From: Vicinamibacteria bacterium
GTDB taxonomy: Bacteria; Acidobacteriota; Vicinamibacteria; Vicinamibacterales; CAVVIG01
Assembly: GCA_041476545.1 (NCBI GenBank)
Contig: JBGOTP010000002.1
Coordinates: 1-54,599 of the forward strand
DNA length: 54,599 bases
Reading direction: 5' to 3'
Below the pieces are notes generated by a model, which saw nothing but the letters and a program-made list of their open reading frames with translations, was not told where the DNA came from and made no database searches. Both the position numbers and the translations under genes were made by a program. Positions within the stretch are counted from its first letter, which is position 1, and every line of letters starts with the position of its first letter. Below are positions 1 to 29,788 of the stretch, piece after piece.

Positions 1-28
1 CAAGGTCCCGGATAACAACGTGGATCAT
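1..28 (-). CDS. 5' end (9 codons, MIHVVIRDL) of a small ORF coupled to the antitoxin-like gene; candidate RelE/ParE-type toxin running off the window
   Basis: ATG at 28-26 overlaps the TGA stop (27-25) of the upstream ORF (ATGA overlap), the usual antitoxin-toxin arrangement. Too short to identify. Confidence 0.3.
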
Positions 29-267
29 TCCTTGCCCGAGGTTCCCTTCAGAAGTTCTGCCCGAACGTGTTCCCAGGGACGACTCGCATTCGGATTAGCT
101 TGGAGGTCGGCCAGTCGTTCGTCCAAGATCTCTCGGTGCCAGTCGGGAACCGGCAGACGGTCCTCTTTGGCGGCGATCCTGTCCCACAGCGCCTGGACGT
201 ATTCAATTTGCTCATCGATGTCGAGTTCGTCGAAGCCTTGGGGCGGAAGTGGTAAAGCGTTTCCCAT
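25..267 (-). CDS. putative addiction-module antitoxin component (TIGR02574-like)
   Basis: 80-aa acidic ORF. LPLPPQGFDELDIDEQIEYVQALWDRIA...VPDWHREILDERLADL resembles the putative addiction module component family. It is followed by an ATGA-coupled ORF. Confidence 0.7.
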   Translation of the reverse strand: MGNALPLPPQGFDELDIDEQIEYVQALWDRIAAKEDRLPVPDWHREILDERLADLQANPNASRPWEHVRAELLKGTSGKE

Positions 268-323
268 AGTTCATCCAATCTAGCATGGCACGTCGAATTT
301 CGTTCGTCGGGCTACGTGTCGCT

Positions 324-743
324 TCAGCCGGGCCGCTCAACCTGCCCGGCGTTGACTATCCACGGCGTGCCGAACTGGTCGATGAGCATCCCGAATCCCT
401 TCGCCCAGAACGTCGCCTGAAACGGCATTTGCACCGTGCCATTCTGCGCCAGCGCACTGAAGACGCGTTCTCCCTCGGCGACGTCATCGAATTCGGTGGC
501 CACACAAAATCCAGCGGGCTTCGTGAATTGTCCCGGAGGCGCGTCGGCTCCTTGCAACACTTGATCACCGATTTGCAGTGTCACGTGCATGATGCGGCCA
601 TGTGCCTCAGGTGGCATGCTTGATGCCATCGGCGACTCACCAATCGTCTGTATGAAGGAGATTTGGCCACCAAACGCCTTCTGGTAGAACTCGAACGCCT
701 CGCGGCAGCGGCCATCGAACGCAAGGTACGGATTGAGCTTCAT
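324..743 (-). CDS. VOC (glyoxalase-fold) family protein, PhnB/YjdN-like
   Basis: 139-aa ORF starting MKLNPYLAFDGRCREAFEFYQKAFGG and ending FWAKGFGMLIDQFGTPWIVN, typical of the PhnB-like 3-demethylubiquinone methyltransferase-domain VOC proteins. Confidence 0.8.
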   Translation of the reverse strand: MKLNPYLAFDGRCREAFEFYQKAFGGQISFIQTIGESPMASSMPPEAHGRIMHVTLQIGDQVLQGADAPPGQFTKPAGFCVATEFDDVAEGERVFSALAQNGTVQMPFQATFWAKGFGMLIDQFGTPWIVNAGQVERPG

Positions 744-854
744 TTAGTCTGCTCCCAGACTCGTGCATGCGATCCGGCGAACGGCCAGGGCTCACCAGCG
801 GCCGCTCACGATCGCGCGAAGCGGCCGGCGCAGCCGGTCCGCTTCATTCGCTGG

Positions 855-1859
855 TTATCCGGCTCTCCGCGTTTGATGCCAAGCCGATTCAACTTCCTTC
901 ATATATTCGTAGTTGACCTGCGCCCCGAAGATGTCTCGGAAGGCCTTTTCGAATTCTTCGCGGTCACCGTCAAGACTGTAATAGCGGAGGGTCGGCGAAT
1001 TGGTCACGTCTGGACGCTTTCGAACGGCCTCACGGAAAAGAAAACGCCCGTACGCATCCTCCTGAGGGAACCGGTATCCGACGACTTCAATCTCAGTGGC
1101 TTTCGAGAATACCTCGACGACTTGGCACCACTGATCGGAAATGGTTTCGTGAAGATGCGGCTGGCCGACCTGAATCTCCTCGAGAAGCTCGCTTTTGATC
1201 GGCACCGCACCGAGCACCAGGGGTTGGACAAACCAGCCAGGACCACCTTGAACTTCAGCCGACCTCATCGATTCGAGTCGTGGGCCTGAGCCATCTCGAA
1301 ACGATGGGGCCTTCCCGGATTCGTGTACCCATGAAAAGGAGCCGTGCGGCTTGATCAGTCGGATCGAGCTGTTCCCGCTGGGGTGCGGCGCCTGCACGAT
1401 ATTCTTGCCGAGCAAGCGTTGCAGAATGGTTTCGGCGAGAGTATCCCAGTTAAATGAAATGAGAGCGTCCCCGGATGTTAGCCCGCGAAGGACGCGCTTG
1501 AGCGTAAACTCGGTCGTCGTCGTGCAGACTCGAGCGATATCGTCGGCAAATGAGTACGCGTCCACAACGGCTTGGTGAAGTTGGATGGAAGCGGCAGCAC
1601 CATAGTCGCACCCGAGTATCCGTTTGAATTTGGAGTAGTAGTCGATACGTGTCCAGAGATGGTCCAAGCTGAGCTGTTCTGACCTGTCTGCGCAGTCCGC
1701 GACGGCTCGAGCTAGTTCCGGATATTCGGAGCTCCAGGTCGGGCGAGCAGCTGTGAGTCGCTGAATGAACCCTGCGACTCCGCCATCTGTTCGCAGCGTC
1801 CCGCTCGTCGCGCCAGTTCCGAGTACAACGACCTTCAAGATCCTCCCTGTACTCCCCAA
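855..1859 (-). CDS. SIR2-like (SIR2_2 family) domain protein, stand-alone
   Basis: 334-codon ORF with a TTG start at 1859 (alternative TTG at 1838, preceded by GGGAGG). SIR2_2-type motifs are visible: VVVLGTGATSG, ISFNWDTLAE (N-x-D), IRLIKPHGSFSW (K-x-HGS) and IEVVGYRFPQED. Three 60-nt lines inside it count 48, 57 and 60% G+C versus about 65-70% elsewhere. Confidence 0.65.
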   Translation of the reverse strand: MGSTGRILKVVVLGTGATSGTLRTDGGVAGFIQRLTAARPTWSSEYPELARAVADCADRSEQLSLDHLWTRIDYYSKFKRILGCDYGAAASIQLHQAVVDAYSFADDIARVCTTTTEFTLKRVLRGLTSGDALISFNWDTLAETILQRLLGKNIVQAPHPSGNSSIRLIKPHGSFSWVHESGKAPSFRDGSGPRLESMRSAEVQGGPGWFVQPLVLGAVPIKSELLEEIQVGQPHLHETISDQWCQVVEVFSKATEIEVVGYRFPQEDAYGRFLFREAVRKRPDVTNSPTLRYYSLDGDREEFEKAFRDIFGAQVNYEYMKEVESAWHQTRRAG

Positions 1860-2143
1860 AGTCAGTCCGGATAACCAGTAGTCGACGAAACTCTCTAGAC
1901 CAATATTTCGGCGGCGCCTGCAGTGTAGCGAGGTGAACGGTTGGATTCAACTTGCTCGGAACCGTTGGCGTCGTCGGGACTTGCCGTCGCGTGAGAGACA
2001 GCAAGGAAGCGGAACAGGCAGATCGTGATGGCGCGGAAAGTCCTGCGGGGCTCGCAGCGTATTCGGCGTGGACGGCCAGCGTCTTCCCTGACGACTCGTG
2101 CCAGGCGCGAATCGATCGAATCGGACTCTGTTGTTGCCGATGT

Positions 2144-3589
2144 CTACCGGCTGGCGCCGGCAGCCACGGGCTGAACGGATCTGGCGATGTCGTCGATGTC
2201 GAGCAAGGGCCTGAGCGGCACCTCGCGCGGGACTTCGGTCGGATACGTCTCCGCAAGGGGCGCTCGATTGAACACGCCGCCCTTCAGACAATAGTTCGTC
2301 CAGACGCGATTCCAGAGAAACGCGTGCCACGCCGCTTCCGGCGACACGGTCTCGTACGTCCGCCAGTACCGCGCGGCGATGTGGTCGGGGCGGAAATACT
2401 GCAACACCTGGACGTACCGGCGCATGAGTCCGGCACCCGTGACGTTCGGCATGCTCGTCACCGGAAACGCGAGCGTGTACTTCTCCCAGTCCTCGGGATA
2501 GTTCTTGAAGAGGATGCGTCCCTCCGCGTCGTAACGCGCGTAGTCGCGCGTGCCCGGCAGCGGCGTGAGAATGGTCGGGTTCAGTCCGTCGAGGTCCGAT
2601 TCCTCCGCGAACCGCAGAATGTCGGACGCGATCGTGTTCATGTCCTGGGTGTCGATGCCCAGGATGAACGAGCCGACGACGCCGATGCCGTGGCTGCGGA
2701 TGCGCGCCACGTTCTCGCGGTAGTAGGCCAGGCCGCGGCGCTGTGACTGCCCGTCTTTGCGAATGAGCGCCAGTGATTTCGTGTCGGTGCTCTCGAGGCC
2801 GATGAAGACGCCGGCGCACCCCGATGCCCTGGCCAGCTCTGGCAACTCGTCGTCGTCTCCAAAATTGATCGTGACCTGCGTAATCCAGCTCTTGTCGAGC
2901 CGGGCGTCAGCCATGGCACGGAACAAATCGAGGCAGCGCTGTTTGGCCTTGCGGGAAAAGCCGTTCAGATCGTCGTCGACGAAGATGATGTCGCGTTCGG
3001 GAATGGCCGCCACCTCGGCGACGACATCCTCGACCTCGCGCATGCGGAAGACCCGGCCGTTGAACGCGGTGACCGAACAGAACGAGCAGTCCATCGGACA
3101 CCCGCGCGAGGTCTGGGCCGACACGTATTCGTACCGGTACTTCGCGAAGATGCGCCGGTCGGGCACGTGCAGCGAGCCGCCGGTCGTTCCGCCGTCGTAC
3201 CGCTTCGCCAGTTGTCCCTGCTCGACATCGGCCACCACCTGCGGCCACACCAACTCGCACTCTCCGAAGAAGAGGGAATCGACGTACCGCGCGGCCTCGT
3301 CCGACACGAGCGAGGCGTGGATGCCGCCCATGACGACGGGAATGCCCCGGGTGCGGAACTGCCTTGCGATTTCGTACGCCCGCGTCGCCTGCGTGGTAAA
3401 CGCCGTGAGGCCCACCAGGTCGGCCTGCACATTCGTGTAGTCGAGCGCGCCCTCGCACTGTTCGTCGATGAGTTCGACCTCCCAATGGGGAGGCGTGGCG
3501 GCGGCGACGTAGCCGAGCGCCAGCGGCTGCCACAGGTAGTCGCCGTACAGAGAGACGCGGTTACGCGGGTTGATGAGAATGAGTTTCAT
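2144..3589 (-). CDS. B12-binding domain radical SAM protein (class B)
   Basis: The start at MKLILINPR (ATG 3589) was chosen inside the longer 2144..3898 ORF. The N-terminal Rossmann-like B12-binding region (LVGLTAFTTQATRAYEIARQFRTRGIPVVMGGIHAS) is followed by the CxxxCxxC cluster motif SRGCPMDCSFCS. It overlaps the upstream gene by 29 nt. Confidence 0.85.
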   Translation of the reverse strand: MKLILINPRNRVSLYGDYLWQPLALGYVAAATPPHWEVELIDEQCEGALDYTNVQADLVGLTAFTTQATRAYEIARQFRTRGIPVVMGGIHASLVSDEAARYVDSLFFGECELVWPQVVADVEQGQLAKRYDGGTTGGSLHVPDRRIFAKYRYEYVSAQTSRGCPMDCSFCSVTAFNGRVFRMREVEDVVAEVAAIPERDIIFVDDDLNGFSRKAKQRCLDLFRAMADARLDKSWITQVTINFGDDDELPELARASGCAGVFIGLESTDTKSLALIRKDGQSQRRGLAYYRENVARIRSHGIGVVGSFILGIDTQDMNTIASDILRFAEESDLDGLNPTILTPLPGTRDYARYDAEGRILFKNYPEDWEKYTLAFPVTSMPNVTGAGLMRRYVQVLQYFRPDHIAARYWRTYETVSPEAAWHAFLWNRVWTNYCLKGGVFNRAPLAETYPTEVPREVPLRPLLDIDDIARSVQPVAAGASR

Positions 3590-4784
3590 GAATGATGGCC
3601 ATCGCGTGTCCGACCTGTTTGAAGATCGCCAGCGCGCGGTCGATGTCTTCCGATGTGTGGGCGGCCGAATAGCTCGTGCGCAAGAGACAGGCGTCGGGCC
3701 GGCAGGCAGGCGGAAGCACGATGTTGGCGTAGAGGCCGGCCTCGAGGAGCGCCCGCCACATCGCGACCGCCCGCTCGGCGGCGCCGACCTCGATCGACAC
3801 GATGGGCGATTCGGTCTGTCCGATCGTGAACCCGAGGTACGAGAGTCCTGCCCGCACGCGCCGTACATTGTCCCAGAGGCGTGCTGTGAGAACAGCATTG
3901 CCCGCGACGTCGTGCAGGAGAATCTTCAGCGCCGCTTCTGCGCCGGCAATCGTGGCGGGGGAACCCGACGCGGTGAATACGTACGGACGTGCGGCAAAGT
4001 GGAGCAGTGTCAGCGCTCGATGGTCCGTGACGCAATACCCGCCGATGCCCGCGAGCGCCTTCGAGAACGTGCCGACGACAAAATCCACCTGATCGAGCAC
4101 GCCCTGGGCATCCGCGCACCCGAGTCCCCGGGGCCCGTACGCGCCGAATGAGTGCGCCTCGTCAACCAGGAGATACGCGCCGGCCTCGCGACAGACCGCA
4201 ACGATGTCCGCCAGCGGGGCCACGTCTCCGCTGATGGAGTACAGGCCTTCGACGATGACGAGGCAGCGCCTGGGGTTGGACACGCGCGCGAGCTTGCGGG
4301 CGAGATCGCCGGCCGAGTTATGGCGGAAGGCAAAGAGCTGCGCGCCGCTCAGCCGCGCGCCGTCGTAAATGCTGGCGTGGCTCTCGAGATCGAGCAGCAC
4401 CGTGTCGTCCACGCCGCAGAGGCCCGAGATGACGGCGAGGTTCGCCTGGTAACCGGTCGTGAAGACCATCCCGTGCCGCTTGCGATGCGCGTCGGCGAAC
4501 GCCTGCTCGAGCCGCCGATGCGCGGCGTAGGAGCCATTCGCGGCCCGCGATCCGGTGGTACCGGTGCCTTCGCGCGCGATGGCCTCGCGCGCGGCTGTGA
4601 TGACGTCCGGGTGGAAGCTCAGGCCGAGGTAGTTGTTCGATCCGCACATCAGCGTGCGGCGCCCGGCGATCATCACCTCCGTCGGACTGCACACCTCGTC
4701 AATGACCGTATCGAAGGGGACCGGGCCGTCGCCGAGTGCGCCAAGGCGATCGGCGAACGGCTGCAGCTTAGCGAGCAGATCCAT
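3561..4784 (-). CDS. PLP-dependent alpha-oxoamine synthase family enzyme (serine palmitoyltransferase / 8-amino-7-oxononanoate synthase-like)
   Basis: 407 aa. Has NNYLGLS, TGYQANL, VDEAHSFG and the PLP-lysine motif GTFSKALAGIGG. It overlaps the FAAL gene by 17 nt. Confidence 0.9.
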   Translation of the reverse strand: MDLLAKLQPFADRLGALGDGPVPFDTVIDEVCSPTEVMIAGRRTLMCGSNNYLGLSFHPDVITAAREAIAREGTGTTGSRAANGSYAAHRRLEQAFADAHRKRHGMVFTTGYQANLAVISGLCGVDDTVLLDLESHASIYDGARLSGAQLFAFRHNSAGDLARKLARVSNPRRCLVIVEGLYSISGDVAPLADIVAVCREAGAYLLVDEAHSFGAYGPRGLGCADAQGVLDQVDFVVGTFSKALAGIGGYCVTDHRALTLLHFAARPYVFTASGSPATIAGAEAALKILLHDVAGNAVLTARLWDNVRRVRAGLSYLGFTIGQTESPIVSIEVGAAERAVAMWRALLEAGLYANIVLPPACRPDACLLRTSYSAAHTSEDIDRALAIFKQVGHAMAIIHETHSHQPA

Positions 4785-6537
4785 CGGCGACTGATCCTCT
4801 GCCCGCGGTCAACAGCGTGCCCGCCTGGAAGCGGGCGCGCGTTTCCGATCGTCGAACCTTTCCGGACGTCGTCCGCGGAATCGTACCGGGTGGTGTCAGA
4901 ATCACCTGATCGAGTTCGAGCCCCGCCGTTTCACGCACCCGGCGTCTGACATCTTCCACGATGTCGCTCGACGTACTGCTCGCGCGTGCCTCGAGTACCG
5001 CGACGACTTCATCGGCGTCCTCGACATGGTTGATGCCGAACACGACGACGCCCGACGACCGGATGCCGTCGACGCTCGCGATGGCCGACTCGAGATCCGG
5101 CGGGTGGTACTTCCGTCCGTGCCGGATGATGAGATCTTTCGTCCGGCCGCAGACGAAGAGCTCACCGTCGGCCATGTAGCCCAGATCGCCGGTCTGCAGC
5201 CATCCGTCGTGCAACGCCTCGGCGGTGGCCACCGGATCCTCGAAATAGCCGCTCATCACCGACGGTCCGCGCGCGACGATGTGACCGACGTACCGTTCGG
5301 GCAGCGCCTGCCCGTCGTCGTCCACGATCCGCACCTCATGGCCCGGAAAGGGGCGCCCGCAGGCGACGAGGCGCACGGGGGCGGTCGGAGCCGTGTGGCC
5401 ATTGAGGGGGAGTAGGTTCACGGGGTTCGCGGGTTTCACCAGGTTCATGGGTGCGATGGGTATCGCCCGTGAGTCGCGCACCAGATGTCCGGCATCGACC
5501 GAGTCGACGGAGATGCCGTCCCGCGCGAATGCCACCGCCAGGGAGTGCTCGGCCAGCCCGTAGCTCGGGACGAAGCTCGAAGCCCGAAACCCGGCGCATG
5601 CGAAGCGCTCGGCGAACGCGGCAAGCGTGTCGCATCGGATCGGTTCAGCGCCGCAACCCGCCACGCGCCACCTCGACAGGTCGAGGGCCGCGATCTGCGA
5701 GGGCTTCACCCGTCGCAGGCAGAGTTCGTAGGCGAAATTTGGGGCGAACGAGATCGTGCCTCCATAGCGGGAGATGGATTCGAGCCAGACCGTTGGCCGC
5801 TTGAGAAACAACACAGGCGACATGATCACGAGCGACAACCGTGCGTAGACACCGGCGAGCAACGCCCCGATGAGGCCCATGTCGTGGTACAACGGCAGCC
5901 AGCTCACCCCGACGTCGGCCGGACCCGCAGCCAACCCGGCGGGGCCCGTGATGGCCGAGAGATTCGCGTGCAGGCCAGCATGCGAGAGCACGACGCCCTT
6001 GGGCACCGCCGTCGAACCGGATGTGAATTGAATAAGCGCTGCCGCGCTGCTCGGCACCGCGACCGGCGCGGCCATTGCCGGTCCATTCGCCAGTTCCTCG
6101 ATGGTCAGGACATGACAAGTGGCCACGGGCCGCGATGGACCCTCCTTATTGCTGAGCAGCGGCACGATATCGGCGCTCACCACGACGGCGGCGACGCGGC
6201 TGGCTGCGAGCAGTTCACGCGACTGCCGGGTAAACGTCGCGATATCGCCCGCCTGGGCCGGTGGGCACAGGGGAACGGGCACCAGCCCGGCGGCCGAGAC
6301 TCCGAAGAACGCGCGGATGAAGCCGCCCACCTCGGGGACCACGATGGCCACGCGATCCCCGGTTGCCAGGCCCTCGGCCCGAAGCGCCCCGGCGATGCGC
6401 AGCGACTCCTCGAGCAGCCACTCGTACGGCATGTCGACGACCCGCCCGTCGTGCTCGATCGCGCGGATGCCGCGGGACGTTGCGGCAGCCATCGCGAGGG
6501 TGCCCGCGATGGAGTGGCCCGTGACGTTCGGAATCAC
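4768..6537 (-). CDS. fatty acyl-AMP ligase / acyl-ACP synthetase-like adenylating enzyme
   Basis: 589 aa with adenylation cores FTSGSTAVPKGVVLSH, TGDLGY, GRTKDLII and PRTTSGKVRR. The GTG start overlaps the ACP stop (GTGA at 6534-6537). Confidence 0.88.
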   Translation of the reverse strand: MIPNVTGHSIAGTLAMAAATSRGIRAIEHDGRVVDMPYEWLLEESLRIAGALRAEGLATGDRVAIVVPEVGGFIRAFFGVSAAGLVPVPLCPPAQAGDIATFTRQSRELLAASRVAAVVVSADIVPLLSNKEGPSRPVATCHVLTIEELANGPAMAAPVAVPSSAAALIQFTSGSTAVPKGVVLSHAGLHANLSAITGPAGLAAGPADVGVSWLPLYHDMGLIGALLAGVYARLSLVIMSPVLFLKRPTVWLESISRYGGTISFAPNFAYELCLRRVKPSQIAALDLSRWRVAGCGAEPIRCDTLAAFAERFACAGFRASSFVPSYGLAEHSLAVAFARDGISVDSVDAGHLVRDSRAIPIAPMNLVKPANPVNLLPLNGHTAPTAPVRLVACGRPFPGHEVRIVDDDGQALPERYVGHIVARGPSVMSGYFEDPVATAEALHDGWLQTGDLGYMADGELFVCGRTKDLIIRHGRKYHPPDLESAIASVDGIRSSGVVVFGINHVEDADEVVAVLEARASSTSSDIVEDVRRRVRETAGLELDQVILTPPGTIPRTTSGKVRRSETRARFQAGTLLTAGRGSVADGSAR

Positions 6538-6827
6538 GACTTCGGCTCCTGGTCGCCAGCGAGACGCCGCACTTCAGCGACAATCTGATCGACGGTTCGA
6601 ATGTGAGTCAAGGCGTTTAAGGGCACGGCGATATTGAAATGATCCTCGAGTTCACCCACGAGCTCGAGTACTTGGAGCGAATCGAATCCCAAGTCGGCCA
6701 GTAATTCGCTCCCGGGTCCGGGATCGATGGGGCGCCGGCTCAACCGTTTGAGAATGTCGAGCGTGTCGCGTTCGAACCGATCCGGGGAAGATGCGGCTTC
6801 TGCACCCGGGGCGGACGTGCCGCGCAC
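6534..6827 (-). CDS. acyl carrier protein
   Basis: 97 aa with the phosphopantetheine attachment motif LGFDSLQVLEL. GTG start. First gene of the coupled operon. Confidence 0.85.
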   Translation of the reverse strand: MRGTSAPGAEAASSPDRFERDTLDILKRLSRRPIDPGPGSELLADLGFDSLQVLELVGELEDHFNIAVPLNALTHIRTVDQIVAEVRRLAGDQEPKS

Positions 6828-6976
6828 GGGGTCGGATGTATGGGCCAGGCCGGCAAATGTAACACGAATGTAATGTGCGCGTCATCAATTAGGGCCACAC
6901 ACCGTGAACCCTGCTCGAAATCTCCTTAGGATTTCGTTGCGAAATCTTCTAGGCACTTCGTTATAGGATACTTGGC

Positions 6977-7732
6977 ATGCCACGTTCGCTGCCCGTGACC
7001 CAGACCATCATCCTTGCCGCCGGCTACGGCTCCCGCCTGGGAAGCGCCGAAAGCGGGGTGCCGAAGCCACTGATGACGGTCGGCGGCCTGCCGCTGATAG
7101 CCCATGCGTTGGAGCACGCTCGCGCCAGCGGGTGTGCACAGGCGGTTATCGTCGTCGGCCATGAAGGGGATCGGGTGCAAGCGGCCGTGGAACAGATGGC
7201 TCCTGGCCTCGACCTCCGCTTTGTCGAGAATCCGGACTTCACGACGCCGAACGGCCTGTCGCTGCTCGCGGCCGAACGGATGGCCGCCGGGCGTTTCTAC
7301 CTTCAGATGGTCGACCACGTGTTCGCCGGTGTGGCGCTCCCCAAGCTGGCCGCGATCCCGTTCGTCAACGGGGAAGACGGACGGGTGCTGGTCGACAACG
7401 CTCCCGGCGACGACATCGATCTCGCGGACGCCACCAAAGTGCAGTTGGCCGGCACCCGGGTTCTGTCGATAGGCAAGGGCATCGGGCTGTGGGATGCCAT
7501 CGACACCGGCTGTTTTGTCCTGACGCCCGCGATTTTCGATGCGCTCCGGCGCGTGCCGGCGGGCGAAGGGCTGACGGTTTCTTCAGGCATGCGGCAGCTG
7601 GCGGCGTCCGGATCCCTCGGTGCCGTGGATGTCGACGGAGTCGAGTGGATTGACGTGGATACGCCGGCGGACCTGGAAACCGCCGAGCGCTTGCTGCTCA
7701 CCGCCGCGGCGCCGATGACACGGACGGCGTAG
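6977..7732 (+). CDS. NTP-transferase; IPCT-like (CTP:inositol-1-phosphate / alcohol-phosphate cytidylyltransferase-like)
   Basis: 251 aa. Has IILAAGYGSRLG...VPKPLMTVGG and NGLSLLAAERMAAGRFYLQMVDHVF. From memory, the latter resembles the NG(Y)SLL...(R)F(I)L.MGDH(V)Y block of archaeal IPCT domains. Confidence 0.8.
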   Translation: MPRSLPVTQTIILAAGYGSRLGSAESGVPKPLMTVGGLPLIAHALEHARASGCAQAVIVVGHEGDRVQAAVEQMAPGLDLRFVENPDFTTPNGLSLLAAERMAAGRFYLQMVDHVFAGVALPKLAAIPFVNGEDGRVLVDNAPGDDIDLADATKVQLAGTRVLSIGKGIGLWDAIDTGCFVLTPAIFDALRRVPAGEGLTVSSGMRQLAASGSLGAVDVDGVEWIDVDTPADLETAERLLLTAAAPMTRTA

Positions 7733-7744
7733 ACGCCGACCCGA

Positions 7745-8980
7745 TCATCCGCGTTCGAGAACTGCTGCGGACTCCAGTTCCTCGCGATATGCCCACAGCG
7801 TGACATTCGCAAACACCACACCGAAGGCGACAAGCCCCGGAAACACCTCGCGGTGGCCGGCGAGCGACACAAATAGAAATACGAGCGCGAACAGATCCCG
7901 CCGGAACAGCTTGAAGCCGCCGGCCGCCATGCGCAGCGCGACCGTGTCGGATTCCCTGGCGGCGCGGCGCACCGTCCGATCGATGAACACAAACGAGGCG
8001 TCCGGCGCGTGGCGTGCCACGAAGAAGGCGCCCCGCACCAGGCTCAGCACCAGTGCGACCGTGACCGTCGTCATCCAGAACAGGGCCTGCGCACCACCCC
8101 CCTCGCGCGCCCACCCGATCGTGACGCCAATGAGACACGCGACGTAGGTGAGCTGATCGACGACGGCGTCGAGACGGGCCCCGGCCTCCGATTCGGTGAG
8201 CGTCGCGCGCGCGATTTCGCCGTCGACGCCATCGAGCACGGACGCGAGCTGAAACAGCAGTCCCATGGCGACGAGCGCGGCATAGCCCGGCCGCATCGCC
8301 ATGACCGCCGCCGCCAGGCCCACGAGCAGGGTGATGACCGACGCGTGCGACGCATTCACGCCGAGGGCGAGCAACACGAAACTAAAGACGCGGCTGATCG
8401 GCCGGTTGAGATGGCGCGCGATCCAGCCGTCGGTTGGCTTGGCCGAGCGCTTGAGCACGTCCCATGTCGCCTGCCGGCGCGCCGTTGCTGTCGACACATC
8501 AAACAGGGCGCCCGGCGTCACCGTCTGTGTCGGCAGGTCGGTACAGTCGTAGTGCAGGCCTTCCGCCTTCGCGTGAAGCTTCCGCCTCCGCAGCGCTTCG
8601 GCGGATTCGTCGTAGCCCTTGTGGCGAAGGCGAATCGGCGGACCGCCGTAGCCTTGGTGTAGGCTGTCAGGCCTGCCTGACACGGCAGGGCTAAAGCCCT
8701 GCGCTACGACTGAGGCGACGTCGCCGACGGGCCCTGCGAGAACGGCTCGCCGAAGCCCTGGCGGAGCGACGGCGGGCTCCAGCCATGCCGGCGACGAAGG
8801 CATCTGCGAGTCGAAGAGTGCCGTATCGATGAGCACGAGCGGCGGCACGACGATCGCGGTGCCGTCGGTGAGACCGGCCAGGGCCGACAGATCGACGACG
8901 GTCGCGCCCACGCGGGCGGCCACGCGGGCGTTGCGCACCCGTACGGACCCACCGAGGACGTGGGGGTCCGCGCCGGGCAT
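7745..8980 (-). CDS. CDP-alcohol phosphatidyltransferase family membrane protein (start uncertain)
   Basis: Exact family signature DGVDGEIARATLTESEAGARLDAVVD (DGxxAR x8 G x3 D x3 D) and multiple TM segments. The ATG at 8980 is the first ATG clear of the divergent rSAM gene. Alternative GTG starts at 8521, 8497 and 8458 lie downstream of an embedded repeat element. Confidence 0.8.
   Translation of the reverse strand: MPGADPHVLGGSVRVRNARVAARVGATVVDLSALAGLTDGTAIVVPPLVLIDTALFDSQMPSSPAWLEPAVAPPGLRRAVLAGPVGDVASVVAQGFSPAVSGRPDSLHQGYGGPPIRLRHKGYDESAEALRRRKLHAKAEGLHYDCTDLPTQTVTPGALFDVSTATARRQATWDVLKRSAKPTDGWIARHLNRPISRVFSFVLLALGVNASHASVITLLVGLAAAVMAMRPGYAALVAMGLLFQLASVLDGVDGEIARATLTESEAGARLDAVVDQLTYVACLIGVTIGWAREGGGAQALFWMTTVTVALVLSLVRGAFFVARHAPDASFVFIDRTVRRAARESDTVALRMAAGGFKLFRRDLFALVFLFVSLAGHREVFPGLVAFGVVFANVTLWAYREELESAAVLERG
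8556..8712. repeat. composite of REP-like hairpins embedded in-frame in the 7745..8980 ORF
   Basis: CCGCCTTCGC (8564-8573) pairs with GCGAAGGCGA (8623-8632, 9 of 10). Hairpin GTCAGGC-CT-GCCTGAC lies at 8666-8681 and hairpin GCAGGGC-TAAA-GCCCTGC at 8685-8702. The latter is the same stem as the intergenic hairpin at 29039-29056. Confidence 0.6.
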
Positions 8981-9097
8981 CAGCACCACGAAGGTGGACG
9001 TCGAGGATGGGGTGGTCACGGAAGCTGAAGTATCATACCAAGTAACCCCGTGTTTCTCCCGTCCCATCCGCTGACGAGCGTTCGACGAGGCGTGCTC

Positions 9098-10015
9098 ATG
9101 CTGACGTCGCCGCGGCGCCCGCTGCTCGTCCAGCTCGTCGTGACACGGCAGTGCAACCTCTCGTGCGGCTACTGCGACGAGTACGACAGCGTGTCGCCGC
9201 CGGTCGACGTGTCGCTTCTCGAGCGGCGCATCGATCACGCCGGAGCGCTCGGTACGGTCGTGCTGACGCTCACCGGCGGCGAACCGCTGCTGCACCCCCG
9301 GCTCGACGCGCTCATCGCGCGTGTGGTATCGCGCGGAATGGTTTGCACGCTCATTTCGAACGGCTACGCGCTCACGCGCGAATGGGTGCGACGGCTGAAC
9401 GACGCGGGTCTGACCGCATTGCAGATGTCGGTCGACAACATCGAACCAAACGGCTACTCGCAGAAGTCCTGGACGAACGTCCGCAAGAAGCTCGAACTGC
9501 TCAAGGAGCACGCCCGCTTCGGCGTCAACATCAACGCCGTGCTGGGGTCGTCGACCTTCGAACAGACGCAGGAAGTCGTTGCGGCCGTGCGCAAGATTGG
9601 CTTCTACATGACCGTGGGCCTCATGCACGACAAAAACGGCCAGATTGAGCCGGGCCTCCTTGGCGACCGGCTCGCGTCGACCTACGCCGAAATGCAGCGG
9701 GCGAGCCGCAAGAGCGTGTTCCACATGACCGGCGAAGGGTGGGAAGGCGACATGCTGCGCGACGGCTCGTCGCCGTTCAAGTGCCGCGCGGGCGGCCGAT
9801 ACCTGTATGTCGACGAGTTCGGCCTGGTGTCCTACTGCAGCCAACGCCGCGGCTCACCGGGCATCGATCTGCTCGACTACACGCCGGACGATGTCGAGCG
9901 TGGATTCTACACGCCGAAGGGGTGCGAGTCGCGCTGCACGATTGGCTGCGCGCGCCGCGCGTCCGCGTTCGACGAATGGCGAGCCCAGCCCGCGGTCGCG
10001 GGAGCGGCCGTCTGA
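9098..10015 (+). CDS. radical SAM protein (MoaA/PqqE-like fold, Cys-rich C-terminus)
   Basis: The start at MLTSPRR (ATG 9098) was chosen within ORF 9050..10015. Has the CxxxCxxC motif RQCNLSCGYCDE, LTGGEPLL, and C-terminal cysteines (FKCRAGG, SYCSQ, GCESRCTIGC). Confidence 0.85.
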   Translation: MLTSPRRPLLVQLVVTRQCNLSCGYCDEYDSVSPPVDVSLLERRIDHAGALGTVVLTLTGGEPLLHPRLDALIARVVSRGMVCTLISNGYALTREWVRRLNDAGLTALQMSVDNIEPNGYSQKSWTNVRKKLELLKEHARFGVNINAVLGSSTFEQTQEVVAAVRKIGFYMTVGLMHDKNGQIEPGLLGDRLASTYAEMQRASRKSVFHMTGEGWEGDMLRDGSSPFKCRAGGRYLYVDEFGLVSYCSQRRGSPGIDLLDYTPDDVERGFYTPKGCESRCTIGCARRASAFDEWRAQPAVAGAAV

Positions 10016-10080: not shown

Positions 10081-12549
10081 GTGCATCACGTTTGTTCCAC
10101 CGCGCCCCTGGCCATTCTCCTCCTGCTCACAACGTGCCTCGCTCATCCAGCGGCCTCAATGGCGCAGCAGCGGCCCGCCGCCGCAACCGGCGCGATTCAA
10201 GGCGAGGTGACGACCCAGGGCAGCAGGATCACGCTCGGTGGCGTGCAGGTGCTGATCTTCACCGGGGCCACGCGCGTGGGCAACGTCAACACCGAAGGCG
10301 ATGGCACGTTCAAGGTCGAGAATCTCGCACCCGGCCCGTACCGCGTGACGGCGCTTCTCGACGGCTTCGAGCCGATTACGGCGACCGCCGTCGTGACGGC
10401 CGGGCAGGCGGTGACGTTGAAGTTCGATCTGCATCTCGCGGAAACCATCGAGGTGAGGGCTCAGATCAACGTCGTTCCGAGCACCGGCACGCTGAGCGCC
10501 GGCGACACTGTGAGCAGGGAAGAGCTCGAGCAGATTTCCCCAGGCGGCGGCGTGCAATCGGCGCTGCGGCTGCTCATCAGTGTGATCGAAGTGCCGGGTG
10601 GTGTCGCGATCAAAGGCGGGCGGCCGAGTCAGGCGAGCCAGCAGCTCGGTCCCGGCAATTTCGTCGACCCGGCGACCGGTCTCACGCAGGTTTCCCTTCC
10701 AGACGATGCGATTGATTCGGTGACGGTGCTGCCGAACCCCTACGCGGTAGAGTTCGGCCGCTTCTCATCCGGACTGGTGCTGATCCAGACCCGCCGCGGG
10801 GCCGACAAGTGGAAGATGCGGTTGAACAACCTGGAGCCGTCGCTGCGGACAAAGCGGGGGCAGCCGCTCAGTATTATCGGCGTCTCGTCGTTCTCGCCGC
10901 GGGCCGAGATCGGCGGTCCGCTCATCAAGGACAAGCTGTTCATTCAACACGCGGTGCAGTACCGCTATCGCACCAATGACGTGCCCAGCCGTCCGCAGGC
11001 CGAACTGCGCCGGTCGTACCGCTTCAGCTCGTTCACGCGCCTCGATGCCAACCTGTCCCCGCGGCACTCGCTCGTGGCGATTGGCGGGACGTTCCCGAGT
11101 AAGTCGACGCTCACGACGCTGGCCACCTTCACGCCTCCAGACGCAACGGTCGACACCAAGGGCCGCGTCGACACCATCGCCGTGACGGAGCGGTCGCTCC
11201 TGACCGACACGCATTTCCTGGAAACGACCGGCGAGATCAACGGCTATCACGGGCGCGTGCGGCCCCAGGGATCCGCGCCGATGGAGTTGCTGCCCGACAC
11301 CACACTCGGAAATTTCTTCAATCGTCAGGATCGGACGACCTCGACGTATCAGTTCGTGCAGACGCTGACCGGGACGCGCACGACGGGCAGTGGCCTGCAT
11401 ATGTACAAGGGCGGCATCGACCTGCTCCACAGCCGCTTCAGTGGGGCGAGCGAGAGCACGCCGGTGCTGATCCGCCGAATCAACGGCACCCTGGCCCGGC
11501 GTCTCGACTTCACAGCCGGCGGGGCCCAGGAGATCCGCAGCACCGATCTGGCCCTCTTTGCGCAGGATCGCTGGCAGCCGAATTCGCGCTGGTATACGGA
11601 GTTCGGCGGCCGGCTCGACCGGGATGGGGTGATTGACAATTTCAACGTCACGCCCCGCGTCGGGACGGCGGTGCTGCTGAACAAATCGGGTGCCGCCGTC
11701 ATCCGCGGCGGCTACGGCCTGTTCTACGAGCGAACGCCCTCGGCGGCGGGCGTGTTCGGGCAGTATGAGGCCGCGACGGAAACGCGATATCTGGCCGACG
11801 GGATCACGCCGATCGGGCCGCCGCGGTTCTTCCGGCACGTCACCGCCCCGGACCTCCGGACACCTCGTGGCGCGACCTGGGATCTCGCCTACGACCAGCG
11901 ATTCAACCGGCGATGGTCCGTGCACATCGGCGCGATCGATCGCCGTGGATCCCACGAGCTCATCGTGGACCCGGTCACCGGGCCGTCGGGGTCCCAGCTG
12001 CTGTTGAGCAGCGGCGGACGGTCGAAGTATCGGGAACTGGAAGCGGGCGTTCACTTCACGGGCGGACCGGGCGCCGATGTCAACGTGTCGTACGTCCGTT
12101 CGATCGCGCGCGCGGATCTGAACGCGTTCACCACGTTCTTCGATTCAGTGCTGGCGCCGGTCCTGGGCCCGAATGCGTACGGGCCCTCGCGATCGGATAC
12201 GCCCCACCGCGTGCTCGCGCGCGGTCGCGCGATGCCGACGCCCACGTGGTTGTTCGTCGGCGTCTTCGACTGGCGCGTGGGGGCGCCCTATTCGGTTGTC
12301 AACGAGTCGCTCGACTTTGTCGGCCCGCGCAACAGCGAGCGGTTTCCGCACTACTTCCGTGTCGATCTCGGCATCGAGCACCGGTTCAAGATCGGCAGGA
12401 ACAGGCCCTGGATTGGCGTGCGGGCCGACAACGTGTTCGACTCGTTTCTTCCGGCCGACGTGCAGGCCAACATCACATCGCCGGCGTTCCGCACGCTCTA
12501 CAATTCCGAATACCGCCAGTTCCGCATCCAGATTCGCTTCGAGCGCTGA
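10081..12549 (+). CDS. carboxypeptidase-regulatory-like domain / TonB-dependent-receptor-like outer-membrane protein
   Basis: A GTG start at 10081 gives the signal peptide VHHVCSTAPLAILLLLTTCLAHPAASMAQQ. The CarboxypepD_reg-like segment is GAIQGEVTT...GDGTFKVENLAPGPYRVTALLDGFEP. A long beta-rich C-terminal region ends in FRIQIRFER. Confidence 0.75.
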   Translation: MHHVCSTAPLAILLLLTTCLAHPAASMAQQRPAAATGAIQGEVTTQGSRITLGGVQVLIFTGATRVGNVNTEGDGTFKVENLAPGPYRVTALLDGFEPITATAVVTAGQAVTLKFDLHLAETIEVRAQINVVPSTGTLSAGDTVSREELEQISPGGGVQSALRLLISVIEVPGGVAIKGGRPSQASQQLGPGNFVDPATGLTQVSLPDDAIDSVTVLPNPYAVEFGRFSSGLVLIQTRRGADKWKMRLNNLEPSLRTKRGQPLSIIGVSSFSPRAEIGGPLIKDKLFIQHAVQYRYRTNDVPSRPQAELRRSYRFSSFTRLDANLSPRHSLVAIGGTFPSKSTLTTLATFTPPDATVDTKGRVDTIAVTERSLLTDTHFLETTGEINGYHGRVRPQGSAPMELLPDTTLGNFFNRQDRTTSTYQFVQTLTGTRTTGSGLHMYKGGIDLLHSRFSGASESTPVLIRRINGTLARRLDFTAGGAQEIRSTDLALFAQDRWQPNSRWYTEFGGRLDRDGVIDNFNVTPRVGTAVLLNKSGAAVIRGGYGLFYERTPSAAGVFGQYEAATETRYLADGITPIGPPRFFRHVTAPDLRTPRGATWDLAYDQRFNRRWSVHIGAIDRRGSHELIVDPVTGPSGSQLLLSSGGRSKYRELEAGVHFTGGPGADVNVSYVRSIARADLNAFTTFFDSVLAPVLGPNAYGPSRSDTPHRVLARGRAMPTPTWLFVGVFDWRVGAPYSVVNESLDFVGPRNSERFPHYFRVDLGIEHRFKIGRNRPWIGVRADNVFDSFLPADVQANITSPAFRTLYNSEYRQFRIQIRFER

Positions 12550-16104: not shown

Positions 16105-17709
16105 ATGACGGGCGCGCAGCGTCTCGCTCGGGTGGCCGTCGTCCTGGCGGTGGCAGCCATCGTCATCTTCGGTGTGACCCGGGGCCTCTTTGTCGCCGCC
16201 GCGGCGGATGCCTACGGATACGTGAGCCAGGCCGATCTCTGGGCCAGAGGCAGCCCGATCGTGCACCAGTCCTTTGCGCGCGAGATGACATGGCCCAACG
16301 CCGCCCAGACGCTGGCGCCGCTCGGCTACCGTCCGCGCACTGCTGATCCACGTGACACCGACATCGTGCCGACCTATTCGCCGGGACTGCCGATGCTGAT
16401 GGCGGTATTCAAGCTGGCCGGCGGGCCGCGGGCCGTGTTTCTCGTCGTGCCGCTCCTCGGCGGACTCGCCGTATGGGCCACCTATCTGATGGGGACACGC
16501 CTGGCCGGATCCCTGGTCGGCGCATCAGCCGCGATTCTCCTTGCCGCCAGCCCCACGTTTCTCTTCGAGGTCGTCTCGCCCACGAGCGATGTGCCGTGCA
16601 CCGCGTGGTGGGCGCTCGCGCTGGCGTGGCTCATGGTCGAGCGCCGATCGGCCGCGTTCGGCGCCGGCCTGGCCACGGGCCTGGCGATTCTGACCAGGCC
16701 GAATCTCGCGCCGCTCGCGGTGATTCCGGGCGCCGTGCTCGTGTGGCGCGCCGCAACCGAACGACTTCGCGGATCCGGTGGCTCTCTTCAGGCCACCCGG
16801 ATGCTGCTTTTCGCCGCCGGCTCCATTCCTGCCTGCATCGTTGTCGCGCTGATCAACCGGCGCTTGTACGGCGCGCCGTTCGCATCGGGGTATGGCCCGC
16901 TCGATGCTCTGTACAGCTGGTCGTACCTGTGGCCGAATCTTGCGCGCTATCCGCGCTGGATCGTCCAGACAGAGACGGTGGTCGTGCTCCTCGCGCTGGT
17001 CGCGCCGTTCGCGCTGCGAGCACACGCGTCGGCACCCGGCCGCGAAGGGTGGCCGCGCAGGCTTGCGATTGTCTGGTGGTGCTTCATTGCCGCAAACGTT
17101 CTGTCGTACATCTTCTATCTCCCGTTCGACGAGTGGTGGTACGTGCGGTTCCTGATGCCCGCGTATCCGCCGCTGCTCGTTCTGAGCTGCGCCGCGTTGT
17201 GGAGGCTGGTGTCGCCCCTCACGCGTCTGGCGATCGGCGCGAACGACCTCGCGGCGGCCACCGTCGTGGGGGCCGTCGCCTGGCACGGTGTGGCCTTTTC
17301 GACCGATCGCGGCGCGCAACTCCAGTGGATCGCCGAACAGCGCTACGCGACCGTCGGCAGATACATCGCTTCCACGCTTCCGGAACGCGCTGTCCTCATC
17401 TCCATGCAGCACAGCGGCGGGATCCGGTACTACTCGGGCCGGATCACGGTCCGGTACGACGTGATGCGGCAAACGGATCTTGATCTTGTGGTCGAGGAGT
17501 TACGGCGTCTCGGGTACTCGCCATATCTTGTGCTCGACGACTGGGAAGAGCCGCAATTCCGCCAGCGCTTCGAGGGACAGAGCGCGCTCGCCGGACTCGA
17601 TTGGATGCCGGTCGCCCGATTGGCTTCGGACCACGTGAGAATCTATGACACGGCCGACCGGCAGGCCGGCCGTCCGGATCGCCAGCGCATCCCGGAGACT
17701 ATTCCGTGA
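16105..17709 (+). CDS. polytopic membrane protein, GT-C-fold glycosyltransferase-like (GT39/ArnT-type)
   Basis: 534 aa with more than 10 hydrophobic segments. N-terminal loop AADAYGYVSQADLW, then TYSPGLPMLMAVF and ILTRPN, typical of PMT_2/ArnT-like enzymes. Confidence 0.6.
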   Translation: MTGAQRLARVAVVLAVAAIVIFGVTRGLFVAAAADAYGYVSQADLWARGSPIVHQSFAREMTWPNAAQTLAPLGYRPRTADPRDTDIVPTYSPGLPMLMAVFKLAGGPRAVFLVVPLLGGLAVWATYLMGTRLAGSLVGASAAILLAASPTFLFEVVSPTSDVPCTAWWALALAWLMVERRSAAFGAGLATGLAILTRPNLAPLAVIPGAVLVWRAATERLRGSGGSLQATRMLLFAAGSIPACIVVALINRRLYGAPFASGYGPLDALYSWSYLWPNLARYPRWIVQTETVVVLLALVAPFALRAHASAPGREGWPRRLAIVWWCFIAANVLSYIFYLPFDEWWYVRFLMPAYPPLLVLSCAALWRLVSPLTRLAIGANDLAAATVVGAVAWHGVAFSTDRGAQLQWIAEQRYATVGRYIASTLPERAVLISMQHSGGIRYYSGRITVRYDVMRQTDLDLVVEELRRLGYSPYLVLDDWEEPQFRQRFEGQSALAGLDWMPVARLASDHVRIYDTADRQAGRPDRQRIPETIP

Positions 17710-17738
17710 TTCGCCGTGACACGGAAGGAATCGAGATC

Positions 17739-19892: not shown

Positions 19893-20038
19893 GGACCAGG
19901 CGCCAAGCGCGTTCTTTGCCATGGCGCGTGCAAGCGCTGCGGCAAGCCCGTCGTCTCAACAAACTACGTGTCGCTCTGGGTGGCCGGACGTATTCATCCC
20001 AGGTCACCCTACACAACATCCAGAGAATGGCCAGAAGA

Positions 20039-20087
20039 CGAGCGCGCGCTTGATCGATGCGTTCAGCACCGGGCCGGATGCCCGGTC
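20039..20087. repeat. 49-nt degenerate copy of the 3' coding end of the MBL gene (partner at 21808-21855)
   Basis: CGAGCGCGCGCTTGATCGATGCGTTC (26 nt) is identical at 20039-20064 and 21808-21833. Weaker similarity follows, including GATGCCCG. The two copies are direct repeats bracketing the tannase gene. Confidence 0.7.
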
Positions 20088-20154
20088 CATCCCGTAATTC
20101 CGACCGCTCGCGGTCGCGAGGTGGTAGGCTGCTCTGGTTACTCAGAGGAGACTC

Positions 20155-21744: not shown

Positions 21745-21796
21745 CTCGCGCCTCGGAAGGGTGGCTCGCGCTGAGGTGCGAGGATGGTGCGTTCGT

Positions 21797-22873: not shown

Positions 22874-22940
22874 GACGCCTATCTCGCGCCGGACTCGCGC
22901 TCCTGCAGCCGGGCGCCCCGCAGGATGTCGCCGATCATCA

Positions 22941-27172: not shown

Positions 27173-27283
27173 GATGCGGATTGTGCCACTCCTCTCCGGC
27201 GCCTTCAAGATATTCAGGCGCGAATCGATGCCCGATTCCGCTACACTTTCCGGCAGGACTTCTACCTTAAGGGAGAACGAGCC

Positions 27284-29029: not shown

Positions 29030-29038
29030 CGTCGCGTT

Positions 29039-29056
29039 GCAGGGCTGAAGCCCTGC
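29039..29056. terminator. GC hairpin GCAGGGC-TGAA-GCCCTGC between convergent genes
   Basis: 7-bp GC-rich stem with a 4-nt loop, located in the 28-nt gap between the stops at 29029 (+) and 29058 (-). No U-tract, so it may be a REP element rather than an intrinsic terminator. Confidence 0.45.
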
Positions 29057-29057
29057 A

Positions 29058-29648: not shown

Positions 29649-29788
29649 GCGTGTCTCCTGTCTGCCGCCGACGCTATCATTCCTCTTGCGTGCCCGGCAA
29701 GCTTGCAGGCTTTGGCTCTAGCGGGATGCCACAGACCATCGAGCCACGGGCATTGCTCACCAGACAGAGACCCTCTACTCTTAGCCCG

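Follow-up and report, generated by a model that had tools for sequence, protein, structure and literature searches.

Organization of the gene cluster

We analysed a 54,599-nt stretch of DNA from a Vicinamibacteria bacterium (GCA_041476545.1, contig JBGOTP010000002.1, positions 1 to 54,599, the whole contig), referred to below as the window, in which seven genes at 2144-10015 appear to form the visible half of a sphingolipid biosynthesis cluster. The cluster combines a predicted serine palmitoyltransferase (Spt) operon with a radical S-adenosylmethionine (rSAM) enzyme of class B and a pair of putative head-group genes. The window has a GC content of ~65 %, and the nearest relatives of its proteins are from metagenome-assembled genomes (MAGs) of Vicinamibacterales (Acidobacteriota). 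All seven open reading frames (ORFs) are intact and have high third-position GC. The features of the locus are as follows:

2144-3589, minus strand: class-B radical SAM enzyme (PF02310+PF04055, 481 aa), putative accessory tailoring gene
3561-4784, minus strand: predicted serine palmitoyltransferase Spt (PF00155, 407 aa)
4768-6537, minus strand: fatty acyl-AMP ligase / acyl-ACP synthetase, FAAL (PF00501, 589 aa)
6534-6827, minus strand: dedicated acyl carrier protein, ACP (PF00550, 97 aa)
6977-7732, plus strand: IPCT-like cytidylyltransferase (PF12804, 251 aa), divergent from the ACP operon
7745-8989, minus strand: DIPPS-like CDP-alcohol phosphotransferase (PF01066, ~414 aa) with a vestigial nucleotidyltransferase-like N-domain
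8537-8719, no strand: palindromic element with inverted arms, in frame in the linker of the CDP-alcohol transferase
9050-10015, plus strand: second radical SAM enzyme (PF04055, 321 aa) with a Cys-rich SPASM/twitch-like C-terminus, divergent from the CDP-alcohol transferase
1-2143, minus strand: non-syntenic, lower-GC flank, in the place where relatives have a CerR-bCerS operon

A preliminary description of this DNA had read the four minus-strand genes ACP, FAAL, alpha-oxoamine synthase (here Spt) and class-B rSAM as translationally coupled, and re-reading the overlaps from the sequence confirms this. ACP and FAAL share a GTGA at 6537-6534 (4-nt overlap), the oxoamine synthase ATG (4784) and the FAAL stop (4768) give an overlap of 17 nt, and the rSAM ATG (3589) and the oxoamine synthase stop (3561) one of 29 nt; gene calls in the closest relative, locus L158, have identical 4-nt and 29-nt overlaps. 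Each of the Pfam domains proposed there for checking was recovered (PF02310+PF04055, PF00155, PF00501, PF00550, PF12804 and PF01066), with PF04055 in the second rSAM enzyme. A scan for promoters and terminators returned nothing above chance.

Related loci were collected by scanning species-representative genomes with the class-B (B12-binding-type) rSAM protein, hereafter B12 rSAM, and in a second scan with Spt, and L158 was used for blastn alignment of the window and comparison of gene calls. We identified the ACP-FAAL-Spt-B12 rSAM block in 21 non-redundant loci, five of them from Gemmatimonadales, one from another Acidobacteriota MAG and the others from Vicinamibacterales. With the same four genes together in 21 independent loci of two phyla, this arrangement is conserved and not due to chance. 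Synteny of all seven genes, which had been proposed as a check, holds in part: the core four are kept and the head-group pair remains linked to Spt in shuffled positions, but the second rSAM gene occurs in only a subset of clusters. Alignment of the window to L158 holds only at 2169-8494 and 8889-10005, and synteny ends at the stop codon of the B12 rSAM gene on one side and at that of the second rSAM gene on the other.

The operon encodes a predicted serine palmitoyltransferase with a dedicated acyl carrier

The oxoamine synthase is a serine palmitoyltransferase by family membership, its catalytic activity being predicted from this assignment. It scored 506.3 bits against the NCBIfam Spt model NF047599 (cut-off 500), and a PDB search aligned it end to end with Sphingomonas wittichii Spt at 363 bits, about 150 bits above the other oxoamine synthases (KBL 207, the cysteate acyltransferase CFAT 186, BioF 175, ALAS 171 and CqsA 132 bits), so that the Spt-type reading is upheld. 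The bioF model TIGR00858 gave 317 bits, under its cut-off of 426, and the Kbl, ALAS and CqsA-type models also scored below their cut-offs. A BioF identity was rejected on the score against the bioF model and the lack of biotin genes in the window, and KBL or CqsA identities on the PDB and NCBIfam scores. Alignment with the Spt of S. paucimobilis and S. wittichii showed conservation of the motifs SHASIYDG, LVDEAHS, GTFSK (containing the pyridoxal-phosphate lysine) and the LLR arginine. Sphingomonad R378 of the RPPATP loop is replaced by Leu, which is no argument against Spt function because sequences of the Caulobacter clade and of gammaproteobacteria also have Leu at this position. Identity to alphaproteobacterial Spt is 45-51 %.

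The two genes upstream of Spt would supply its acyl substrate. FAAL carries PF00501 (198 bits) and an AMP-binding C-terminal domain, has the fatty acyl-AMP ligase model NF006624 as its best NCBIfam match (495 bits, under the cut-off of 600) and is syntenic in 20 loci. ACP matches PF00550 at 45.5 bits, has the DSL phosphopantetheine serine motif and opens the operon in every relative. A dedicated ACP and FAAL beside Spt, as looked for in a ceramide cluster, are therefore present, in genes overlapping each other and Spt.

Vicinamibacterales relatives carry CerR-like and bCerS-like genes of ceramide synthesis

Bacterial ceramide synthesis has as its published signature the co-localisation of Spt with CerR and bCerS, often as a cluster (PMC11334938; PMC11087976). 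In every Vicinamibacterales relative with enough flanking sequence the B12 rSAM gene is followed directly, in convergent orientation, by genes for a NAD-dependent epimerase-family reductase (CerR-like) and a 370-aa protein with a faint GNAT match (bCerS-like). The neighbours of Sphingomonas Spt belong to the same two families, with 36 % identity over the full length for the bCerS-like protein and 35 % for the CerR-like protein. S. oligophenolica (L122) has a CerR-like gene followed by ACP and Spt, and the GNAT-like protein (36 % identity, full length) is encoded 6 kb away. Caulobacter loci fetched with Spt gave no CerR or bCerS matches, and hence the tie to characterised ceramide genes rests on the Sphingomonas loci and on the literature.

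Within the window, synteny breaks at the stop codon of the B12 rSAM gene, 2.1 kb from the contig end. The flank beyond it (1-2143) has a GC content of 0.58 compared with ~0.65 elsewhere and encodes a 334-aa protein at 855-1859 with a marginal SIR2 match only (PADLOC included), a VOC/YjdN-like protein at 324-743 and an antitoxin-like ORF of 80 aa at 25-267. This flank could represent a mobile or defence islet at the end of the contig. CerR and bCerS are missing from the window through a local rearrangement or an assembly boundary, and their absence does not characterise the pathway. The preliminary description, seeing neither a ceramide synthase nor a ketoreductase, had considered the product probably not a textbook ceramide. 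This view fails because all adequately flanked Vicinamibacterales relatives carry both genes directly after the rSAM gene and the window has a local synteny break at that point. Judged by gene content, the pathway of the relatives is the standard ceramide pathway with additions.

What surrounds CerR and bCerS differs between lineages. In L158 (9450-17058), and also in L159, L005 and L003, they belong to a tightly packed operon of eight genes, the others encoding a GFO/IDH/MocA oxidoreductase, a class-III aminotransferase, a 290-aa protein, a second NTP-transferase, a HAD hydrolase and a CDP-OH transferase resembling phosphatidylinositol-phosphate (PIP) synthase. The content of this operon suggests a second, possibly amino-cyclitol, head-group module. 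In the deep acidobacterial locus L018 (11331-13766) the frame after B12 rSAM has a CerR-like region at its N-terminal end together with a cytochrome P450 domain, possibly as a fusion or as two genes sharing the frame. In Gemmatimonadales a PMT_2 (GT-C) glycosyltransferase or a type-I phosphodiesterase, and not CerR, follows the B12 rSAM gene (L014 7207-8739 and L013; L016 11429-12943 and L017).

A class-B radical SAM enzyme coupled to Spt

The B12 rSAM protein matches PF02310 (39.7 bits) and PF04055 (47.8 bits), both over the gathering scores, and has the cluster motif CPMDCSFC. HpnP and HpnR, the hopanoid methylases, are B12-binding rSAM enzymes that act on lipids. Scores against curated NCBIfam models were 87 bits for PhpK (cut-off 600), 80 for HpnJ (578), 67 for HpnR (650) and 60 for the ladderane rSAM (360), and membership of these four families was rejected as all scores are far under the cut-offs. 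An AlphaFold (AF2) model (pLDDT 76.8, pTM 0.81) gave full-length Foldseek matches to class-B enzymes only, namely AprD4, MgmA (structure 9ccb; PMC11796369), TsrM, CysS, OxsB and TokK, in a comparison that does not separate methylases from dehydratases. The class-B assignment made at the outset thus stands on the PF02310+PF04055 architecture, and the methylation suggested with it is one of several chemistries that the fold allows.

Orthologs of this enzyme (69-89 % identity) are always encoded directly after Spt, and homologs of 48 % identity or less are never linked to Spt. The rSAM gene is present in 21 of the 35 non-redundant Spt loci from Acidobacteriota and Gemmatimonadota, and in 13 of them CerR comes directly after Spt. 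On the strength of these 13 loci, B12 rSAM is taken to be an accessory gene. In a rough neighbour-joining tree of Spt, loci lacking rSAM are interspersed with those that have it, and the positive loci include those of Gemmatimonadales and the deep acidobacterial L018; this distribution suggests an old association of rSAM with Spt and repeated loss.

The more distant homologs (36-48 % identity) of Bacteroidales lie beside FAAL-ACP fusions, sulfotransferases and glycosyltransferases, a context that weakly suggests carrier-bound acyl chains as substrates of the wider B12 rSAM family. Loci of this kind in Bacteroidales and Lentimicrobium (L041 1416-12953; L043, L044 and L045) contain one to several B12 rSAM paralogs (36-45 % identity), up to four FAAL-ACP fusion genes, a sulfotransferase and sugar-nucleotide enzymes, and represent an uncharacterised type of acyl-modifying cluster. 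B12-binding rSAM enzymes that methylate or cyclise lipid chains have been reported, including Hgm and GrsA/B (bioRxiv 10.1101/2023.10.20.563219). The literature that we searched contained no paper tying a radical SAM enzyme to bacterial sphingolipid synthesis.

The putative head-group genes resemble a split IPCT/DIPPS enzyme

The NTP-transferase encoded divergently from the ACP operon has as its best NCBIfam match the IPCT (CTP:inositol-1-phosphate cytidylyltransferase) half of NF041135 (IPCT/DIPPS), at 126 bits over model positions 2-221, followed by AglF at 76 bits. Its best PDB matches are the Archaeoglobus fulgidus IPCT/DIPPS 4mnd (96 bits) and IPCT 2xme (94 bits). The resemblance to archaeal IPCT domains that had been noticed in this protein is borne out by alignment, in which NGLSLL...RFYLQMVDHVF of the window pairs with NGYSLL...RFILTMGDHVY of A. 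fulgidus IPCT. Sixteen of the 21 related loci with rSAM also have an IPCT-like gene, among them each of the four Gemmatimonadales loci that exceed 5 kb; the other five are L018 and loci that are short or truncated.

The convergent CDP-alcohol transferase has the DIPPS half of NF041135 as its best NCBIfam match (86 bits), followed by archaetidylinositol-phosphate synthase (44 bits) and PIP synthases, and its sole PDB matches are AF2299 and 4mnd, both of the A. fulgidus DIPPS type. The CDP-alcohol phosphatidyltransferase signature attributed to it can be read directly, DGVDGEIAR...GARLDAVVD being a perfect DX2DGX2AR...GX3DX3D. It had been described simply as a membrane protein; the membrane domain is present, but the gene runs from 7745 to 8989 and also encodes an N-terminal domain of ~100 aa. 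This domain is conserved in eight aligned relatives (the L158 gene encodes 396 aa) and resembles a degenerate nucleotidyltransferase start, which fits descent from a fused IPCT/DIPPS enzyme. The window itself has two separate, convergent genes where IPCT/DIPPS is a fusion. By best matches in both NCBIfam and the PDB the pair is IPCT/DIPPS-like and not PgsA/PssA-like, as had been surmised.

The pair lies within 10 kb of Spt in both Vicinamibacterales and Gemmatimonadales, in varying position and orientation, and this persistence near Spt in two phyla despite rearrangement argues for a functional link and not for a fortuitous neighbour. Some relatives add a GT4 glycosyltransferase and a Polysacc_synt flippase to the cluster; homologs of the flippase, GT4 and PMT_2 proteins were not found in the window. 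The linker of the transferase contains a palindromic element (8537-8719) with inverted arms of 39 nt that are 74 % complementary. The element is absent from all eight aligned relatives, coincides with an interruption of the L158 blastn alignment (8495-8888), has no second copy in the window and adds ~34 aa net relative to L158; it resembles in-frame insertions of miniature inverted-repeat transposable elements (MITE) or repetitive extragenic palindromic (REP) sequences.

Judged by family matches, inositol is the best-supported head group, though unproven. A cytidylyltransferase that activates a sphingolipid head-group precursor has been confirmed in Caulobacter, where CpgD acts and CDP-glycerate is used (PMC12275187), and a CDP-inositol route to inositol lipids has been proposed for Bacteroidetes (B. 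vulgatus and Prevotella) but is unconfirmed (PMC9246714).

A second radical SAM enzyme in a subset of clusters

The second rSAM gene, described as divergent from the CDP-alcohol transferase, is present and encodes a protein with PF04055 (73 bits) and the motif CNLSCGYC, but it is part of only a subset of the related clusters. Its family matches are weak (MoaA 62, PqqE 55 and viperin 54 bits) and the best PDB match is BlsE. Orthologs with 76-78 % identity occur in six non-redundant loci (L005, L008, L009, L012, L086 and L107), of which L086 has the second rSAM gene yet no B12 rSAM, and L158 has a homologous radical SAM gene at the same position. In five of seven loci the gene adjoins the flippase gene, an arrangement that would tie it loosely to the head-group and export module.

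Proposed pathway and alternatives

We propose, with a probability of about 0.6, that the genes at 2144-10015 are the visible half of a cluster for bacterial sphingolipid synthesis whose product is of the inositol-phosphoceramide type with a radical-SAM-modified chain. By analogy with the ACP and ACP synthetase of Caulobacter and by family membership, FAAL would adenylate a long-chain fatty acid and load it onto the dedicated ACP, and Spt would condense the acyl-ACP with serine to give 3-ketosphinganine. The class-B rSAM enzyme, translationally coupled to Spt, could then, as an optional tailoring step, functionalise a C-H bond of the acyl or sphingoid chain by a radical reaction, cobalamin-dependent C-methylation being the likeliest. 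N-acylation by bCerS and ketone reduction by CerR would finish the ceramide, in this genome necessarily with off-contig genes, if present. The IPCT-like enzyme would make a CDP-activated alcohol, most likely CDP-inositol, from which the DIPPS-like transferase would move the phospho-alcohol onto ceramide or a lipid-bound inositol to give an inositol-phosphoceramide-type lipid; the second rSAM gene would be an optional member of this head-group module. The preliminary interpretation is thereby supported in part: it was right in kind, having proposed a sphingoid lipid with a CDP-activated, probably inositol-phosphate head group and rSAM tailoring, and wrong in denying a ceramide. The core corresponds to a known pathway, one already suspected in this phylum from soil lipidomics (PMC9969633), and the Spt-coupled class-B rSAM and the split IPCT/DIPPS-like module are undescribed variants whose products would be those given above. 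That both novelties hold together, namely an undescribed rSAM modification of the chain (methylation of an unactivated carbon or, with lower probability, the formation of a ring or a tail-to-tail coupling) and a CDP-inositol-dependent inositol-phosphoceramide synthase, is a tentative proposal that we rate below even odds.

Several observations weigh against this pathway. We found no CerR or bCerS homologs across the whole 54.6-kb window (tblastn, E <= 0.01), so the complete pathway is not demonstrated for this genome, and neither gene lies within 10 kb in the Gemmatimonadales loci. The best fold match of the B12 rSAM model is AprD4, a cobalamin-independent diol dehydratase (TM 0.62-0.66), so that the fold does not favour methylation. 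Both the IPCT and the DIPPS match fall far short of the 580-bit equivalog cut-off, which was set for the fused thermophile enzyme, and no domains of myo-inositol-1-phosphate synthase (MIPS) were found in the window or in the fetched Vicinamibacterales and Gemmatimonadales loci. The CDP-alcohol transferase has the in-frame palindromic insertion described above, and its acceptor is presumed to be a lipid. The lack of CerR and bCerS in the window and near the Gemmatimonadales operons would also suit an operon making an amino-ketone that is no sphingolipid, such as a signal or natural product, with the window copy working without ceramide enzymes; the combination of ACP, FAAL and oxoamine synthase also serves CqsA/LqsA-type and other pathways. 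We regard this as very unlikely given that the enzyme is an Spt by model cut-off and by margin, that the orthologous operon abuts CerR and bCerS in all Vicinamibacterales relatives, and that the loss of synteny coincides with a lower-GC insertion at the contig end. Slightly less probable still is that the IPCT/DIPPS-like pair makes the soluble osmolyte di-myo-inositol phosphate (DIP) and lies fortuitously beside a sphingolipid operon. IPCT/DIPPS is indeed the closest characterised system for both genes, and the natural DIPPS acceptor is inositol-1-phosphate, but linkage to Spt has been kept through several rearrangements in Vicinamibacterales and Gemmatimonadales, the genes are split and the transferase N-domain is degenerate, flippase and GT4 genes co-cluster, and the hosts are soil mesophiles, whereas DIP is mainly a solute of thermophiles and hyperthermophiles.

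Two further alternatives concern parts of the proposed inositol-phosphoceramide pathway. The ceramide may receive a head group other than inositol phosphate, with the IPCT-like enzyme activating another cyclitol, an aminocyclitol, glycerol or a sugar phosphate. The sub-threshold scores and the failure to find a MIPS gene in any locus fit this option, as do the use of CDP-glycerate in Caulobacter (PMC12275187) and the co-transcription, in relatives, of bCerS and CerR with a GFO/IDH/MocA oxidoreductase, a class-III aminotransferase and a second NTP-transferase/HAD/CDP-OH set, which suggests a modified or amino-cyclitol. We nevertheless hold it to be unlikely, though a good deal less so than the osmolyte, as both proteins independently match inositol-specific enzymes best (126 bits for IPCT against 76 for the next model in the case of the NTP-transferase) and the next matches of the transferase are archaetidylinositol-phosphate and PIP synthases. 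The alternative with the strongest claim, if still short of an even chance, is that the class-B rSAM enzyme is not a methyltransferase and instead catalyses an AprD4-like diol dehydration, a Grs-like ring formation or an Mss/Tes-like tail-to-tail C-C coupling on the lipid or the head group. In its favour are the dehydratase as best fold match, the formation of rings in lipid chains by the B12-binding GrsA/B, and co-occurrence of the head-group module in every adequately flanked rSAM-positive locus except L018. Moreover, Acidobacteria, those of subdivision 6 among them, produce iso-diabolic acid but have no mss homolog (PMC13159169), which leaves room for a speculative coupling role of B12 rSAM. 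Set against these points, most characterised enzymes of this architecture are methylases, the fold matches that follow AprD4 (MgmA, TsrM, CysS and TokK) use cobalamin, and the gene is coupled to Spt and not to the head-group genes. The gene also occurs in Gemmatimonadales; we know of no report of membrane-spanning lipids for this order, although no search was made.

Neighbouring genes and related contigs

A TonB-dependent-receptor-like outer-membrane protein with a CarboxypepD_reg domain (10100-12549, plus strand) adjoins the cluster and is syntenic in several Vicinamibacterales loci at 63-68 % identity. Further along the window are an AddB-like PD-(D/E)XK nuclease (~12.6-16.0 kb), three genes for pyrroloquinoline quinone (PQQ)-dependent dehydrogenases, one a fusion with a cytochrome c domain, together with a separate cytochrome c gene (17649-29717), and a UvrD/AddA-like helicase-nuclease (29.6-33.4 kb). 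Contigs with clusters of the acidobacterial type were also found filed under Betaproteobacteria or Bifidobacterium MAGs (L007/L085, L010 and L086), probably through binning or labelling errors.

Significance

Vicinamibacterales are abundant and largely uncultured soil bacteria, and no cultured strain came up among the matches of the two genome scans. Should both of the novelties named above hold, the clusters would give rise to a new class of tailored inositol sphingolipids, made by Acidobacteriota (Vicinamibacterales) and Gemmatimonadota, both of them abundant soil phyla. In soil lipidomics, ceramides have been found to correlate with a Vicinamibacteraceae amplicon sequence variant, and it was asked whether Acidobacteriota make sphingolipids (PMC9969633); the cluster offers a concrete genetic basis for this question. 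It also provides a candidate Kennedy-type CDP-inositol route to inositol-phosphoceramide, so far only proposed for Prevotella and B. vulgatus, and a possible involvement of radical SAM chemistry in sphingolipid synthesis for which the literature searched holds no precedent. Should the rSAM enzyme alter the chain, the product could be used as a lipid biomarker for these phyla.

Comparison with known systems

The IPCT/DIPPS enzyme of A. fulgidus and Thermococcales is the best match of both head-group proteins, and the transferase has the full CDP-alcohol motif and a remnant of the N-terminal nucleotidyltransferase domain. It differs in that the genes here are split and convergent, belong to mesophilic soil hosts and a lipid cluster, score far under the family cut-off and probably serve a lipid acceptor. 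The putative alternative cluster for inositol lipids described by Heaver et al. (2022; PMC9246714) in B. vulgatus and Prevotella is comparable by gene families, not by sequence, in combining a Kennedy-type cytidylyltransferase with a CDP-alcohol transferase for a proposed inositol-phosphoceramide, and its NTP-transferase/HAD/CDP-OH trio recurs in the bCerS-CerR operon of the relatives. The window has no HAD or MIPS gene, and the Bacteroides pathway is itself unconfirmed. Bacteroides inositol-lipid clusters have a CarboxypepD_reg-domain protein (BT_1527 homolog) nearby (PMC9246714), as does the window at 10100-12549.

The B12 rSAM enzyme has the same architecture as the lipid-modifying enzymes Hgm, GrsA/B and HpnP/HpnR and as AprD4 and MgmA, with a B12-binding-type domain at the N-terminus, then the radical SAM barrel, and a helical domain at the C-terminus; its genomic context is lipid-related. 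It differs from them in lacking a family-level match and in its presumed substrate, a sphingoid or acyl chain, which has no rSAM precedent in the literature searched. Compared with the ceramide pathway of Caulobacter and Sphingomonas, the cluster and its relatives have a Spt-coupled class-B rSAM gene inserted between Spt and CerR; the Caulobacter pathway differs further in using cpg genes where IPCT/DIPPS-like head-group genes are found here, and the window is without bCerS and CerR. The two nevertheless share the Spt family (45-51 % identity), a dedicated ACP and an adenylating loader, and the CerR-like and bCerS-like genes adjacent to the operon in the relatives are homologous to those beside Sphingomonas Spt.

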